64,000 nt of DNA. Source: Candidatus Uhrbacteria bacterium. Lineage in GTDB: Bacteria; Patescibacteriota; Patescibacteriia; UBA9934. Location of the stretch: positions 84,936 to 148,935 of the forward strand of contig CALRCK010000001.1 of the NCBI GenBank assembly GCA_943354605.1, in the 5' to 3' direction. Below are positions 2,597 through 59,719 of this stretch, one piece after another. The notes below the pieces were generated by a model. It worked only from the letters and a program-made list of their open reading frames with translations, did not search any database and was not told the DNA's origin. Each line of letters opens with the position of its first letter. Position 1 is the stretch's first letter. Position numbers and translations under genes: made by a program.

Positions 2597-2941
2597 ATGA
2601 TCCGACTTCTTGCTGCGGCAACTGCGCCCTTCAATGCTGATCCACTTTCAAATGCTGGTGCGGCGGCATACGGTGGCACCGTGCCTTCGACCACCCTTTT
2701 TTCCCTGATCAACAGCATTATCACTGCGATATTCAGCGTTCTTGGCCTCATATTCCTTTTCCTTACGCTCTACGCGGGGTATTTATGGATGACGGCGATG
2801 GGGGATTCAAAGAAAGTGACGCGAGCAAAGGATATGCTGTCGCAGGCGGTCATCGGGCTCATCATTGTTGTACTCTCGTACGGAATTTCCTTCTTCGTGG
2901 TCGATCTTATTGGGACCGCTGGAGGATTCGGCGGGATATAA
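2597..2941 (+). CDS. pilin-like small membrane protein E
   Basis: It carries the same module (LYAGYLWMTAMGDSKKVTRAKDML) between two hydrophobic helices. Confidence 0.5.
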   Translation: MIRLLAAATAPFNADPLSNAGAAAYGGTVPSTTLFSLINSIITAIFSVLGLIFLFLTLYAGYLWMTAMGDSKKVTRAKDMLSQAVIGLIIVVLSYGISFFVVDLIGTAGGFGGI

Positions 2942-2953
2942 ACGCTCGCATTT

Positions 2954-3066
2954 GGCCCATTTTCGACTCAGGCCTTCGGAAACTTCTTCAACGTACCGAG
3001 AAGTACGCCTCAGAAGCTTTCCTCGCCCTTCATCGAAACTGGTCTCAAATGAGAGCGTTTATCTCG
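2954..3066. repeat. ~112-nt repeat family R1, copy 1 (forward orientation)
   Basis: This copy aligns along its length with the reverse complements of 16151-16264 and 26825-26936. Shared blocks include GCCCATTTTCG…AACGTACCGAGAAGTACGCCTC…CGAAACTGGTCT.AAATGAGA. It contains a hairpin CGTAC-n6-GTACG. Confidence 0.6.
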
Positions 3067-3659: not shown

Positions 3660-5609
3660 TCAGTTGCAGGGGTACGAGGTGTCGTTCACCTTGTCGCACT
3701 GCGCGCGGCCGCCGTAGGCTTCGAGGGCTTCCGCCTTCTTCTCCGCCTTCGTCTTGGCTCGCGGCTGCCTGGCCGCGGGCTTCGACCCCGACGTCGCGCC
3801 GCTGCCGCTGCCAACCGCGTTTTCCGCGTAGTCGAGCACCTTGGAGCCGCCATTGCTGACGACCCCGGCCGCGCGCGTGGCGCCGTGGCTCATCGACGTT
3901 TCCGTCTCCGAGATCCACTGCGCGCCGAAGATGCGAACGACGATGAACGCCGCGAGCACCCCGGCCGTGACAACGCGCAGCGCGTTGTACCCGTACTGCA
4001 GGTTGAGGATGTCCTGCTTCTCGATCTCGGCGCCGAGCTTCCCCGCGTACGAGCCGTACACCTTCATCGTGGCGCCACGCTTCAGGTACCCGTACGCAAT
4101 GGCGAGGATCGCGATGAACGTGATGCCGCCGATGCGCCAGCTCTGCGGCGTGTTGAGCGCGAGCGCGAGGGTGAGAGGGATCCACGCGAGCACGATCGCG
4201 GAAGCGACCGTGGCACTGATGTTCACGAGGAAGTTGGTTTTGGCCAGCTCCTTCGACAGCGCGTCCACGTGTTCCTTCTCCATCCGGATGATGCTCTTGA
4301 TGAACGCCGGGATGGCGCCCACCGTCTGCCCACCCTTCTGGAGGAGGTTGATGCTCACGAAGTCGAAGGTCACGATGACGAGGAGGCTCACCCAGTAGGC
4401 GAACCAGTCCACCGTCGGCGTGAAGATCGCCGTGATCACCCACACGAGGGTGAGCGCCATCGGCGCCGCGTAGAAGCCGAGGAGCACGCCCACCACCTGC
4501 ACCGCGCCGGAGACGATCCAGCCGAAGGCCATCATGAGCGCCGAGACGCCCAAGATGGTCACGGTGGACCCCCAGGCGAAGCCCGGGAGCCAGTCCTGGT
4601 GCCAGTTTCCGATCCACAGCGTGATGATGCCGTAGATGATGAGCGCGCCGACGACTGCCACCGAACCCTTGCTCACGTTGGCGGCCGTGCGGATGGCCGC
4701 CTGCGCCTTCACGAACGCGCTGCTCGGCTGGAGGCCTGCGAACAGGTGCAGCCGGTCGAGCATGTCCATGCCGCTGGCGACGGCGTTGGTGCCCTGGTTG
4801 CGATCCGCCTGGCCGACGAGGAGGAACTCGAACGCCGGGATCATCCGGCGCACGAAGTTCTCCGCGGAGCGCCGCCAGCCCTCGAGGTTCGGGCCGCTCT
4901 GGCACCCGTGGTTCTCGAAGTCGCGGATCTCCCCCACGAACTCCACGGCGGCATCGAAGTCCGGGCCCGAGAGCCAGTTCTTGATGTCGTCCGCGTTGTC
5001 GCGGAGGGTGTTGAGGAACCCCACGCCGGCCACCGCCGCCTCGCCTTCCAGCTCGGCAACGATGTCGGTGCCGGGCGTGGCTTCGATCCGCATGAGGCGG
5101 AACATGTAGAGGAGGACGAGCTGCTGGGTGTCGGAGTACCCGGCGCCTGCGGTTGCTCCGGAGAGCGCGCGCTGGACGCGGGAGTACGACGCCACCGGAA
5201 CAGCTGCCGGGGTGGGGGTGGTTGCGGGAGAGGCGGTTGCGGGGGTGGCCATGAGGGCTCCGATTCGGGGGTTGCGGGAAAAATTCCGCCAGTGCGCGAC
5301 GACGTCGGCACGGGCTTCTTCGGTGGTCTTGCCGGTCACGCCGCGCAGCATGCGCGACGTCGGCGGGATGGTTTCCACGAATTCGCCCAGCAGGGACAGC
5401 ACACCGCCACGGTTCTGCAACCGCTGAGCGATGAACAGGATGGCCGGGCTGGCGATGTTCGGGATGCTGGCGTAGAGGTCGAAGATGACCCCCACGAATC
5501 CCTCGAGGTTGTCGGACCCACGGATGCGGGCCACGATTTCGTCGGGGAGGCGCTGCTCTCCGTCTTCGGTGAGGGCACGGATGAGGCTTTGGAAGTTGGA
5601 ATCGCTCAT
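3660..5609 (-). CDS. large polytopic membrane protein in GC-rich block 1 (~330-aa soluble N-terminal region plus ~7-8 TM helices), function unknown
   Basis: This is the long minus-strand ORF 3660..5777, with the likely start at MSDSNFQSL (ATG at 5607-5609). The sequence is coherent, with clear hydrophobic helices. The overlapping plus-strand 690-aa ORF and the other-frame minus-strand 669-aa ORF are Arg/Pro/Gly-rich artefacts of high GC. Confidence 0.5.
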   Translation of the reverse strand: MSDSNFQSLIRALTEDGEQRLPDEIVARIRGSDNLEGFVGVIFDLYASIPNIASPAILFIAQRLQNRGGVLSLLGEFVETIPPTSRMLRGVTGKTTEEARADVVAHWRNFSRNPRIGALMATPATASPATTPTPAAVPVASYSRVQRALSGATAGAGYSDTQQLVLLYMFRLMRIEATPGTDIVAELEGEAAVAGVGFLNTLRDNADDIKNWLSGPDFDAAVEFVGEIRDFENHGCQSGPNLEGWRRSAENFVRRMIPAFEFLLVGQADRNQGTNAVASGMDMLDRLHLFAGLQPSSAFVKAQAAIRTAANVSKGSVAVVGALIIYGIITLWIGNWHQDWLPGFAWGSTVTILGVSALMMAFGWIVSGAVQVVGVLLGFYAAPMALTLVWVITAIFTPTVDWFAYWVSLLVIVTFDFVSINLLQKGGQTVGAIPAFIKSIIRMEKEHVDALSKELAKTNFLVNISATVASAIVLAWIPLTLALALNTPQSWRIGGITFIAILAIAYGYLKRGATMKVYGSYAGKLGAEIEKQDILNLQYGYNALRVVTAGVLAAFIVVRIFGAQWISETETSMSHGATRAAGVVSNGGSKVLDYAENAVGSGSGATSGSKPAARQPRAKTKAEKKAEALEAYGGRAQCDKVNDTSYPCN

Positions 5610-7460: not shown

Positions 7461-7494
7461 TCGATTTTAGAAGCGCTTTGCCGCTATTTTGTTT

Positions 7495-7578
7495 CAGTCA
7501 TGTTGAGCGCAGCGAAACATCTCCGCAGGGAGTGCTGGTAACCTACGGGAGATTCTTCACTTCGTTCAGAATGACTGA
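7495..7578. repeat. palindromic hairpin repeat (family R2), copy A
   Basis: GTCATGTTGAGCGCAGCGAAACATCTCC … GGGAGATTCTTCACTTCGTTCAGAATGAC form imperfect inverted arms. It sits between convergent gene ends. Confidence 0.55.
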
Positions 7579-8935: not shown

Positions 8936-9018
8936 TCGTGTCATTCTGAGCGAAGCGAAGAATCTTCGTCGTGACCAACACGTAACCCACGAGAGATTCT
9001 TCGCTTCGCTCAGAATGA
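8936..9018. repeat. palindromic hairpin repeat (family R2), copy B
   Basis: GTCATTCTGAGCGAAGCGAAGAATCTTCG … CGAGAGATTCTTCGCTTCGCTCAGAATGAC is a near-perfect inverted repeat, 3' of the flippase gene. Confidence 0.6.
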
Positions 9019-9027
9019 CTGAAGAAG

Positions 9028-16150: not shown

Positions 16151-16264
16151 AGATAAGAACTTTCTCATTTCAGACCAGTTTCGGTGCGCAAGGAGCAAAG
16201 TTCGCGAGGCGTACTTCTCGGTACGTTGAGCGAATTTGCGACGCAGCAAGCCGAAAATGGGCGA
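16151..16264. repeat. repeat family R1, copy 2 (reverse orientation), immediately 5' of tRNA-Leu
   Basis: Its reverse complement aligns with 2954-3066, including the AACGTACCGAGAAGTACGCCTC hairpin block. Confidence 0.6.
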
Positions 16265-16283
16265 AATGACGAAGTTCTTGTGA

Positions 16284-24471: not shown

Positions 24472-24590
24472 AGGAGGGTAATCCCGACGCGGCAATCCAG
24501 GCTCAGTCATTCCGAGCGTAGGCGAGGAATCTCCGCAGGTGATCCGTGATAACCTGCGAGAGATTCTTCACTTCGTTCAGAATGACTGAG
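24472..24590. repeat. palindromic hairpin repeat (family R2), copy C, with an extra upstream half-unit
   Basis: CAGTCATTCCGAGCGTAGGCGAGGAATCTCCGCAGG … CTGCGAGAGATTCTTCACTTCGTTCAGAATGACTGAG. It shares about 60 nt with copy A. Confidence 0.55.
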
Positions 24591-24611
24591 ATGCAGATTA
24601 AGTGATTTTCT

Positions 24612-26170: not shown

Positions 26171-26593
26171 TTAATAATGATACGTCACCCCATGATTGAT
26201 AGTGCAGGCGCGGTAGAGTTGTTCGAGGAAGAAAAGGTGGGCCATGTCGTGGGTGGTGGTCATGGGGGAGAGGGAGAGACGGAGGGCGGCGCGGGTTTTG
26301 AGGCTTTCCGGGAGGCCGCGGGGGCCGCCGAGGACGACGGTGATGTGGTTACCGAGGTCCTCGTGAGCCTTGAGGAAGGCGGCGAAGGATTCGCTGCTGT
26401 GTTTTGGGCCGATAGCGTCTAGAACGATGAGGATATCGCCTGCGGGAATGGCGTCGTCTACATCGTCGGCGGATTTGACGATTTTTTCCGTCATCATGAC
26501 GAATTTTTTCAGCCGAAGGCGAAAATCATCCCCAATTGCTTGAAAAGGGCCTCGGGGGAGGGTGCCAACGGTGATGAGGGTAAGTTTGATCAT
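26171..26593 (-). CDS. rlmH: 23S rRNA (pseudouridine1915-N3)-methyltransferase RlmH (SPOUT)
   Basis: The N-terminus MIKLTLITVGTL and the motif VVLGGPRGLPESL match RlmH over about 140 aa. The gene is visibly GC-rich. Confidence 0.75.
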   Translation of the reverse strand: MIKLTLITVGTLPRGPFQAIGDDFRLRLKKFVMMTEKIVKSADDVDDAIPAGDILIVLDAIGPKHSSESFAAFLKAHEDLGNHITVVLGGPRGLPESLKTRAALRLSLSPMTTTHDMAHLFFLEQLYRACTINHGVTYHY

Positions 26594-26824
26594 AAGGGCG
26601 AATCTTAGCGCAGAAACCGATGTGGAACAATGGTGGATAGTTCGGATACGGATTTTCTTGACAGTCACTCCGCAGTCCTATACCATTTCGCCCACATTGA
26701 GCCTGTGCGGAAACGTCCGCTTTGGAGATGTAGCGCTGAAGTTTTCTTGAGCTCTAACCTCCGAACTTTCACAACTGAAGATTGCAAATAGAGAAAAACG
26801 TACTGATGACGATAATGATCGGGA

Positions 26825-26936
26825 CGCACATATTTGGTGATAGTTTCGGTGCGCAACGAGCAAAGCTTTTGAAACGTACTTCATGTGTACGTTGAAAAAG
26901 TTTGCGAAGGTGCAAGCCGAAAATAGCCCAAATAGG
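26825..26936. repeat. repeat family R1, copy 3 (reverse orientation), immediately 5' of 23S rRNA
   Basis: Its reverse complement aligns with copies 1 and 2 (GGCTATTTTCGGCTTGC…AACGTACACATGAAGTACG…TTGCGCACCGAAACT). Confidence 0.55.
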
Positions 26937-26964
26937 GGCGGACCGCATTGTCAGCAATCAGTGA

Positions 26965-29995
<3,031 letters not shown>

Positions 29996-30071
29996 ATTCA
30001 CTGATTGTTCTCGGAAACGAGTAACAATACGTTCTTCACTATTTGCAGAAACTGATCGAAAGGATCCTCCG

Positions 30072-30182
30072 TCTTGGTGGCACTTCCGGCAGGGCAACAC
30101 CCGTTCCCATCCCGAACACGGTCGTTAAGCCTGCACGGGCCGATGGTAGTCAAGGTGGCGAGAGTAGGTGGCCGCCAGGACA
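30072..30182 (+). rRNA. rrf: 5S ribosomal RNA
   Basis: …CCGTTCCCATCCCGAACACGG…GCCGATGGTAGT…GAGAGTAGGTGGCCGCCAGG is a typical 5S core. The ends are approximate. Confidence 0.85.
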
Positions 30183-39825: not shown

Positions 39826-39826
39826 T

Positions 39827-39854
39827 AAAACACCGTCGATTCCGACGGTGTTTT
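39827..39854. terminator. bidirectional terminator
   Basis: AAAACACCGTCGATTCCGACGGTGTTTT. Confidence 0.6.
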
Positions 39855-39861
39855 ATATTCC

Positions 39862-45565: not shown

Positions 45566-45845
45566 ACGCCCAAAGTATACCGCGTTGCAGCGAAATCGTG
45601 AGCGGATGATTGATGCGGTCATCCACGCGTATGCGGGGATCCAGACTTCATCACTCGCTGGTGGCTCGGGTACATTCTTCTGCACTCCGCGCGAATCCCC
45701 TACGCTGCAACGTCTCACTGGCGTTCGACTGCAGCTGTGGGGCGCGTGCTCGTTGGAAGAATGTATCCTCGCCACTGGCGCTCGCGATGTCCTCGGTGCC
45801 ACCCGTTGAATCACTCACAACGTTCGGTCGGTTCGATGTCGCAAT

Positions 45846-59662: not shown

Positions 59663-59719
59663 AGAAGATTAGGATGTTCTCCAAAGTGAACGTCCTAAAA
59701 GATTATAGTAAAGATGATA

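Follow-up and report, generated by a model that had tools for sequence, protein, structure and literature searches.

A dispersed non-coding palindromic repeat of Candidatus Uhrbacteria and its polar placement beside structured RNA genes

The window, the whole 64-kb stretch of Candidatus Uhrbacteria DNA analysed here, carries three copies of a small non-coding repeat. One lies between two T4SS-pilin genes (Pfam PF18895), one immediately upstream of the tRNA-Leu(TAA) gene, and one upstream of the 23S rRNA gene. Each copy was assigned to the strand that folds better, termed the G.U strand; the unit ends at positions 2938, 16279, and 26945 are called L, and the opposite ends R. The copies were delimited by nhmmer and by their folds, and were scored with a covariance model (CM), as follows:

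2938..3062, minus strand (the G.U strand): copy 1; CM score 135.9 bits on the minus strand versus 46 bits on the plus strand
16155..16279, plus strand: copy 2; CM score 135.6 bits
16284..16369, plus strand: tRNA-Leu(TAA) gene, abutted by copy 2
26820..26945, plus strand: copy 3; CM score 116.2 bits
26965..29999, plus strand: 23S rRNA gene, abutted by copy 3

A profile of the three copies, run with nhmmer, has no match in the window apart from the copies themselves (E = 1e-37 to 1e-42). The covariance model, built from 92 family members, scores them at 136, 136, and 116 bits, and run with all filters off it found no fourth full copy in the 64-kb window. Among 94 family members, the complementarity between the two arms sets in sharply at the terminal pair: Watson-Crick pairing reaches 83% at the last pair and 83-98% over the last three pairs, versus 15-32% just outside (32% one position out). 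Because this pairing boundary is abrupt and fixed, we set the ends of the unit at 125-126 nt. An earlier note on this DNA had described a repeat of ~112 nt; its three copies are real and far beyond chance similarity, but its coordinates covered only the core of a larger unit. Over the full unit, copies 1 and 2 are 75% identical, rather than the ~80% reported before, copies 1 and 3 are 68% identical, and copies 2 and 3 are 67% identical.

The L end of copy 1 (2938) overlaps the TAA stop codon (2939-2941) of the upstream gene, and the description of this copy as inverted between pilin-like genes holds, since it lies on the minus strand and both neighbours are T4SS-pilin genes. The L end of copy 2 (16279) is 4 nt upstream of tRNA-Leu(TAA), with the G.U strand co-directional with the tRNA. 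That of copy 3 (26945) precedes the 23S start (26965) by 19 nt and falls immediately outside the 5' half of the processing stem, which is formed by the complementary flanks CAATCAGTGAATGGAGAGC (26946-26964) and GCTCTCCATTCACTGATTG (from ~29990). The same orientation of copies 2 and 3 before these genes had been recognised previously, but the distances given, 19 and ~30 nt, were too long. Within the elements, the open frames that produce spurious peptides are indeed open, as had been claimed; they are short and differ between copies, and the 125-nt unit has no coding capacity. A protein search with the translated element returned a single cluster only and was useless as a census.

Every copy in the window folds into one long imperfect hairpin with a minimum free energy of -42 to -62 kcal/mol (z-scores of -4.6 to -7.1). 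The strand read from R to L (minus at copy 1, plus at copies 2 and 3) is more stable when folded than its complement, by 10-15 kcal/mol; for copy 1, the values are -61.6 kcal/mol on the minus strand and -47.1 kcal/mol on the plus strand. On the better strand, five positions form conserved G.U pairs and a 2x2 internal loop near the tip reads GA/GA (tandem G.A), whereas the weaker strand presents A.C and U.C mismatches at these positions. On the better strand, G.U combinations outnumber A.C by 383 to 43, and the covariance model gives this strand ~130 bits versus ~45 bits for the other. The hairpin consists of four helices, of which the tip and a UUUCG/CGAAA helix are invariant, whereas the intervening helices and the 17-bp terminal helix vary. 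The tip (helix 4) is composed of the GA/GA loop, a G.U pair, an A/G-U pair, and a CGUAC stem closed by U.G around a 4-nt loop; it is paired in 99% of cases, and four of its eight pairs never vary. The UUUCG/CGAAA helix (pairs 28-32 with 107-111) is identical in 89-92 of 92 copies. In the window, these invariant parts are located at the following positions, with no strand assigned:

2988..3011: apical module of copy 1, invariant, TCAACGTACCGAGAAGTACGCCTC
16206..16229: apical module of copy 2
26871..26895: apical module of copy 3, with one extra loop base
2959..2965: box ATTTTCG of copy 1, pairing with CGAAACT at 3034-3040
16252-16258 / 16177-16183: the same box pair in copy 2
26918-26924 / 26842-26848: the same box pair in copy 3

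The internal CGTAC/GTACG hairpin that had been noticed before is thus present, but it is only the tip of a hairpin that spans the whole element. The sequences previously taken for terminal inverted repeats, TTTCGGCTTGC and GCGCACCGAAA, lie mid-stem as part of the second helix and not at the ends.

We scanned 185,579 species genomes, one per bacterial or archaeal species, for the exact core motif and obtained 69 loci from about ten Candidatus Uhrbacteria metagenome-assembled genomes (MAGs), all but one of them assigned to Uhrbacteria or Patescibacteria. Some of the element-bearing MAGs carry the label 'uncultured Gammaproteobacteria'. A Paludibacter locus (L015) was discarded as a chance match of the search pattern. 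Further copies, whose existence the earlier note had left to be checked, are numerous in genomes beyond the window: nhmmer detected 105 copies within the 69 loci. The MAG TrH-25oct19-103 has 31 copies and two further MAGs have 17 each, counted in the fetched parts of the genomes; since loci were fetched only where the exact core motif was present, diverged copies and whole-genome numbers are underestimated. In TrH-25oct19-103, several near-identical copies occupy unrelated loci, which indicates recent multiplication. A metagenome scan added 25 further stretches from Hainich groundwater and a few lakes, and a scan of viral contigs gave no matches, so that nothing there suggests a phage or plasmid origin. 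None of the 4227 Rfam covariance models matched at its gathering score; at E <= 10, only chance-level hits to SNORD26, Yfr1, and DUF805b appeared, all far under threshold. The element corresponds to no Rfam family, and it is not a leader conserved in unrelated bacteria, a possibility that had been raised together with the repeat itself. In the literature on repeats, MITEs, and palindromes of Uhrbacteria, CPR, and Patescibacteria, we found no description of it.

The pairing of the hairpin is maintained across the family. In the alignment of 92 copies, 46 base pairs are supported and 95.2% of cells are paired, compared with 78.3% after column shuffling (0 of 500 shuffles reached the observed value) and 34-46% with slid partners. 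Compensatory changes on both sides occur in 35 of the 46 pairs, and the covariation that the earlier note had proposed to look for is thus strong. Copies that occupy the same site in different species provide a view of the same process in place. The coding DNA around them is only ~80% identical between species, and when copies present in three species are entered as three pairs, double changes are compensated in 105 cases and broken in 12, while 32 single changes keep a pair and 27 break it. On the better strand, single changes at these sites yield G.U more often than A.C (32:14, p = 0.01). Because this bias is concentrated in the tip, which holds 15 of the 32 G.U changes and leaves a ratio of 17:14 elsewhere, the stems are constrained to pair without strand preference, whereas in the tip it is the sequence of one strand that is under constraint. 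The three copies found in 23S leaders share derived characters, for example GATAG...AATAGCCC, and therefore diverged in place without re-insertion. Upkeep of pairing in situ would be unneeded by a purely selfish element, and it points to either a host-level function or a palindrome-correcting mechanism.

The copies are intergenic. Between co-directional protein genes, 12 are in sense and 17 in antisense orientation, according to gene calls made with a crude longest-ORF heuristic. The genes enclosed by two copies have housekeeping functions (S15, LexA, SOD, MetK, NusB with RNase III, and a NYN-domain protein). Overlap with a stop codon was seen in sixteen copies; in 12 it involves the L end, where the stop is supplied by the consensus end TAG. 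About a fifth of the copies (~22%) abut tRNA genes at distances of 0-12 nt, about 78-80% are not beside stable-RNA genes, and ~97% lie outside rRNA leaders.

At structured RNA genes, the placement is polar. The L end faces the tRNA at 14 independent sites, whether the element precedes the 5' end or follows the 3' end of the gene. R ends approach a tRNA to within 7 nt at one site only (L045, 5 nt from tRNA-Val), and a second R end is nearby at L056 (12 nt from tRNA-Thr); both elements are wedged between two tRNAs, and their L ends are 0-1 nt from the other one. The same polarity is observed at 23S rRNA genes: copy 3 and its counterparts in two species (L046 and L032) turn L to the 5' half of the processing stem, and a second copy at L046, located in the 23S-5S spacer, turns L toward the 3' half. 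In general, flanks of 45 nt beyond the L end are more strongly structured than those beyond R (-9.3 versus -6.1 kcal/mol, Wilcoxon p = 1.7e-5), and eleven or more L flanks consist of a terminator hairpin with a T-run behind it. Since a tRNA looks alike from both ends when read outward, in that each presents a stem of this type, all cases are covered most simply by a rule that places L immediately 3' of a folded sequence. This arrangement at tRNA genes, rRNA stems, and terminators suggests structure-guided target choice; selection for harmless sites is an unlikely explanation, because it would not account for the fixed orientation of a near-palindrome.

Two further ideas about arrangement were abandoned. 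Orientation relative to replication is weakly biased (54:34) and lends little support to a lagging-strand ssDNA mechanism. Long-range pairing between the two inverted copies that flank the 23S gene at L046 would be expected to lose to local hairpins, the copies being too diverged.

The element has been gained or lost at single intergenic positions. At least eight sites hold a copy in one species and have both flanks directly adjacent in another, with the direction of change unpolarised. One such site lies in the window, where the 23S-5S spacer contains only a small hairpin at the position that carries a full copy in the MAG MaH-04nov19-6 (L046:1903-2027). Comparisons of filled and empty sites gave no sign of a target-site duplication. 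Terminal dinucleotides other than TA..TA are inverted complements of each other (GA..TC in 12 copies, AA..TT in 8, and TG..CA in 6, among others); a TA target duplication of the IS630 or Correia type was rejected on these grounds, as such ends are complementary and not duplicated. Within ~8 kb around each copy, we found neither orphan ends, nor a longer element with the same termini and a gene inside, nor a protein family recurring beside the copies. A tblastn search for Y1/RAYT-like open reading frames gave no match at E < 0.1, with IS200, IS608, and YafM sequences as queries; this is a weak test given that it covered ~8 kb per copy, 0.58 Mb in total.

Shorter derivatives also exist. A copy at L025:2276-2350 has its centre deleted and represents a decay intermediate, and the window contains two short hairpins that resemble the outer stem, listed here together with the empty site:

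30000..30072, plus strand: 23S-5S spacer, empty site with a small hairpin only (ATTGTT-CTCG-GAAA-CGAG-TAACAAT)
39826..39855, plus strand: probable relic of a copy directly after tRNA-Ala, hairpin TAAAACACCGTCG-ATTC-CGACGGTGTTTTA
59670..59697, no strand assigned: candidate solo outer stem TAGGATGTTC-TCCAAAGT-GAACGTCCTA, with ends as in the consensus TAGGAC...GTCCTA, a resemblance only

The stem at 39826-39855 is homologous to the outer stem of a full copy that follows tRNA-Ala at L017. This hairpin is followed by TTTTAT and resembles a terminator of the tRNA-Ala gene. Solo outer stems as an abundant class were not supported, as they show no enrichment over shuffled sequences. Insertion of the core into the loops of pre-existing host hairpins could have accounted for the covarying outer stem, but was likewise rejected as a general rule, since 92 copies have the same pairing boundary; loss of the centre accounts better for the short homologous hairpins.

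What the observations establish is a non-coding palindromic repeat that is dispersed, has been gained or lost at its sites, and is confined to one clade of uncultured freshwater bacteria. We consider it probable that the repeat forms a family specific to this clade, Candidatus Uhrbacteria (Patescibacteria), which belongs with REPINs, ERIC, and MITEs among the small non-coding interspersed palindromes and is mobile and sited at the foot of structured sequence. We file it as a new family within the known kind of small interspersed palindromic repeats, with two odd traits, namely termini that vary but are compensated and a fixed end that faces structured RNA genes. In behaviour its closest analogues are REPINs and in shape ERIC, membership of either group being not established.

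REPINs are doublets of REP sequences that form hairpins and are mobilised by RAYT transposases in Pseudomonas and E. coli (PMC3116915). Like the present family, they are non-coding extragenic units of ~100 nt that form one long hairpin in ssDNA or RNA, with conserved boxes on both arms (here ATTTTCG/CGAAACT) and frequent compensatory changes; they leave no target-site duplication, give rise to shorter 'singlet' remnants, and form lineage-specific populations that persist by vertical descent (PMC3116915). The most conserved part here is the centre, unlike the spacer of a REPIN, and not two REP units. The GTAG/CGTC tag of REP and REPIN sequences is missing, the ends read TAGGAC...GTCCTA, and the base just outside is not preferentially G or C. 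In REPIN-RAYT systems, the genome has a single-copy RAYT (Y1/HUH transposase) gene, typically with the repeats on either side; no RAYT was seen in the ~8 kb around copies, which is a weak test. The polar association with tRNA and rRNA genes and terminators sets the present family apart from REPINs.

ERIC (IRU) sequences of Enterobacteriaceae and Vibrionaceae share with our element an imperfect palindrome of ~126 bp with a conserved central inverted repeat, an intergenic location in either orientation with co-transcription with neighbours, and tens to hundreds of copies whose number differs between related genomes (PMC10969869). The hosts of our element, however, are Patescibacteria, a different phylum, and comparison with an ERIC consensus gave no similarity at E <= 1; none was found to Correia or REP sequences either. 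We know of no report of ERIC placing a fixed end against tRNA genes. Common features are also found with the Correia elements of Neisseria (NEMIS/CREE) and with IS-derived MITEs such as RUP and Nezha, including a size of ~100-150 bp, hairpin-forming transcripts, which in Correia are cut by RNase III, insertion near the ends of genes, and presence/absence polymorphism (PMC10969869). Correia elements differ in having conserved 26-bp terminal repeats and a TA target duplication, whereas in the present family conservation is lowest at the termini, whose outermost dinucleotides are inverted complements.

The suggestion of the earlier note that the repeat is a MITE that prefers these sites is borne out as far as the copies are dispersed, polymorphic, and polar in their preference for tRNA and rRNA genes. 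The element is small and non-coding, with terminal inverted pairing (of unconserved sequence) and many dispersed polymorphic copies, as a MITE would be; but unlike a classical MITE, it has variable termini around an invariant centre, it generates no target-site duplication, and no parent IS was seen in the 0.58 Mb around copies, so that the name MITE in its strict sense is not established. Rickettsia palindromic elements (RPE) proliferate in the small reduced genome of a host-dependent bacterium, including beside and inside RNA genes. The multiplication of a palindromic repeat in a small reduced genome is common to both, but RPEs often lie in frame inside protein genes, whereas all copies studied here are intergenic or merely touch stop codons.

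What keeps the hairpins intact may have an answer other than mobility. In the main rival reading, the copies could be host 'punctuation' hairpins, kept as RNA between genes as RNase III sites, 3'-end protectors, or terminators, a role that would explain their conservation whatever their origin. REP, ERIC, and Correia elements act in this way in other bacteria. The excess of compensated over broken double changes at shared sites holds in all contexts, and the 23S-leader copy and a copy upstream of tRNA-Ser are each retained in three species. More than half of the copies between protein genes have co-directional neighbours, and therefore are likely to be transcribed there; RNase III is encoded in these genomes, one strand folds better through its conserved G.U pairs and tandem G.A loop, and variants that follow tRNA 3' ends finish in T-runs. 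However, the orientation relative to transcription is random, and half of the copies would thus present the weaker strand. Several copies are placed behind a terminator already present, the empty sites of sister species have no visible replacement, and the near balance of G.U and A.C changes outside the tip indicates no strand-specific selection on the stems. Intra-palindrome template switching is a general property of DNA palindromes, and it could also keep the pairing. Such a role may apply to some copies, but not as a general explanation, and as the reason for the conservation of the family we regard it as unlikely.

Returning to the probable reading, that of a mobile family of interspersed palindromes, we infer a mechanism from the distribution of conserved and free positions. 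As ssDNA or RNA, the unit folds into one hairpin in which the invariant tip and the UUUCG/CGAAA helix are joined by helices that drift but remain paired. The spread of the element calls for a trans-acting enzyme, not encoded in it, which would read the folded single strand at these invariant parts. Recognition of a folded strand and not of duplex termini is suggested because the tip and the box are invariant, whereas the stems are free but compensated to the last pair. The enzyme would insert the element without target duplication at the foot of folding sequences, with the L end facing them; its targets would be terminator hairpins, the stem that processes the 23S, and tRNA genes approached at their 5' or 3' side, with stop codons also favoured. 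In this view, copies 2 and 3 are best regarded as insertions at favoured structured sites and copy 1 as an insertion at a stop codon. Old copies keep the hairpin or lose its centre, leaving a short hairpin usable as a terminator. A rather doubtful extension is that this represents a mode of structure-guided transposition undescribed for palindromic repeats, in which the enzyme recognises the GA/GA loop and the G.U-flanked ACGUAC stem of the tip together with the UUUCG/CGAAA helix, and that the host subsequently retains the products for RNA processing or termination, non-coding DNA being otherwise very scarce in such a genome.

Copies 2 and 3 are likely to be present in precursor RNAs, because they are sited between likely promoters and the mature 5' ends. 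Promoter-like sites were predicted upstream of copy 3 (26658-26686 and 26789-26816), and none was found between copies 2 and 3 and the respective mature 5' ends. Both are probably transcribed as a leader hairpin that would be discarded during maturation by RNase P or RNase III. It is very improbable, however, that the family serves specifically as a leader, or as a processing or antitermination signal, of stable-RNA transcripts, a role considered in the earlier note. The co-orientation of copies 2 and 3 at 4 and 19 nt from tRNA-Leu and 23S, the ~22% of copies that abut tRNA genes, the conservation of the 23S-leader copy in three species, and the promoter-like sites upstream of copy 3 would all agree with it; but nearly four-fifths of copies (~78%) have no stable-RNA gene beside them, three of the four tRNA genes in the window lack a copy, the opposite strand would be transcribed at tRNA 3' ends, and no Rfam leader family matches. 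The element contains no boxA, and the sole boxA-like match near 23S (26763-26774, with 3 mismatches) is at chance level and outside the element.

The idea of a free-standing small RNA, also put forward with the first description, does not fit, as a trans-acting RNA gene is disfavoured by the lack of a conserved promoter or terminator in or around copies, by the overlaps with stop codons, and by distances of 0-7 nt from tRNA genes. An internal outward promoter driving the tRNA or 23S gene was rejected, too: the consensus has no conserved -35/-10 sequences, and the only candidates are in the flanks.

We assign a very small chance also to a site that acts at the DNA level, a duplex or cruciform bound by a nucleoid, topoisomerase, or regulatory protein, with the central ACGTAC...GTACGT palindrome as its binding site. 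BIMEs, for example, bind gyrase and IHF. Independence from transcription orientation, the invariance of the central inverted repeat, and the strand symmetry of stem substitutions outside the tip would suit such a site. Duplex binding, however, needs no set of 46 maintained intra-strand pairs over 125 bp, and the invariant asymmetries (the G.U pairs and the GA/GA loop) acquire a meaning only when a single strand is folded, and no partner protein was identified. Finally, an assembly or duplication artefact or chance similarity can be dismissed, as the copies are 67-75% identical with differing flanks and the family occurs in independent assemblies from several studies and sites.

Genomes of Patescibacteria (CPR) are ~1 Mb in size, tightly packed, and thought to be repeat-poor, and dozens of copies per genome thus account for an appreciable share of the non-coding sequence. 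In MAGs, the repeat gives rise to spurious ORF calls and to breaks in the assembly. It also provides a clean natural data set on what keeps long palindromes paired, with stems at fixed sites that drift with compensation around an invariant tip, and its polar placement at tRNA and rRNA genes gives a concrete hint of insertion by way of structure recognition. The covariance model is of use in annotation, where the element can be masked or followed with it, since it separates true copies (116-141 bits) from background (at most 20 bits).

In two loci from other genomes, a near-consensus promoter (TTGACA-17-TATAAT/TATACT) overlapping a CIRCE-like operator (TTAGCACTC-N9-GAGTGCTAA) was found immediately upstream of a copy of the R1 hairpin repeat, on the flank of its L terminus (L044, ~5075-5125; L060, ~4855-4900), and thus in these two species R1 lies within the leader of a heat-shock gene. 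In locus L043 (1185-2224), a gene encoding an NYN-domain (PIN-like nuclease) protein is located between two inverted R1 copies, both of whose L ends point toward it, an arrangement that matches the one around the 23S rRNA gene of locus L046. This is the sole protein gene seen to be bracketed by inverted R1 copies with the L ends inward.

In the window, the sequences on either side of the 23S rRNA gene pair into a 19-bp processing stem (26946-26964 with ~29990-30008); the 5S rRNA gene comes next, and there is no 16S rRNA gene upstream. The 16S rRNA gene is unlinked from this 23S-5S unit, since the upstream neighbor of the 23S rRNA gene is a divergently oriented gene:

26171-26668, minus strand, SPOUT methyltransferase (RlmH-like)

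Typical R1 copies also occur in MAGs deposited as 'uncultured Gammaproteobacteria bacterium' (L001, L003, L006, L020, L031, L036, L048, L052, L061, and L064); their flanks are shared with Uhrbacteria MAGs, and this taxonomic label is probably wrong.

Two short hairpins in the window resemble the outer stem of R1 minus its center:

39826-39855, immediately 3' of tRNA-Ala
59670-59697, assigned by resemblance

The former is homologous to the full R1 copy at the same site in locus L017, while the ends of the latter correspond to the R1 consensus TAGGA...TCCTA.

A second hairpin repeat family of ~85-95 nt, which is unrelated to R1 and carries the motifs CAGTCATTCTGAGCGAAGCGAAGAATCTC ... GAGATnnTTCGCTTCGCTCAnnATGACTGA, was identified in three copies in the window and in one further Uhrbacteria MAG:

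7494-7578, minus strand, window
8938-9022, plus strand, window
24500-24597, plus strand, window
L024:2497-2591, other Uhrbacteria MAG

The AGCGAAGCG motif of this family is present inside a 36-nt insertion, itself a small hairpin (GTATGAAGTAAAGCGAAGCGCTTACTTCATAC), in one arm of two R1 copies (L047:2267-2427 and L027:463-623). Two other R1 copies are enlarged:

L090:1547-1730, ~185 nt
L064:611-795, ~185 nt

Finally, we identified a conserved intergenic stretch of ~140-190 nt:

45640-45780, window (conserved region 45618-45812)

Its identity to six loci of other Uhrbacteria MAGs (83-91%) far exceeds that of the adjacent coding DNA. A search against Rfam gave no match to this stretch, even at E <= 1. 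With a predicted folding energy of -84 kcal/mol (z -3.8), the stretch forms a long hairpin. We propose it as a candidate conserved non-coding RNA, 6S- or SRP-like in shape.
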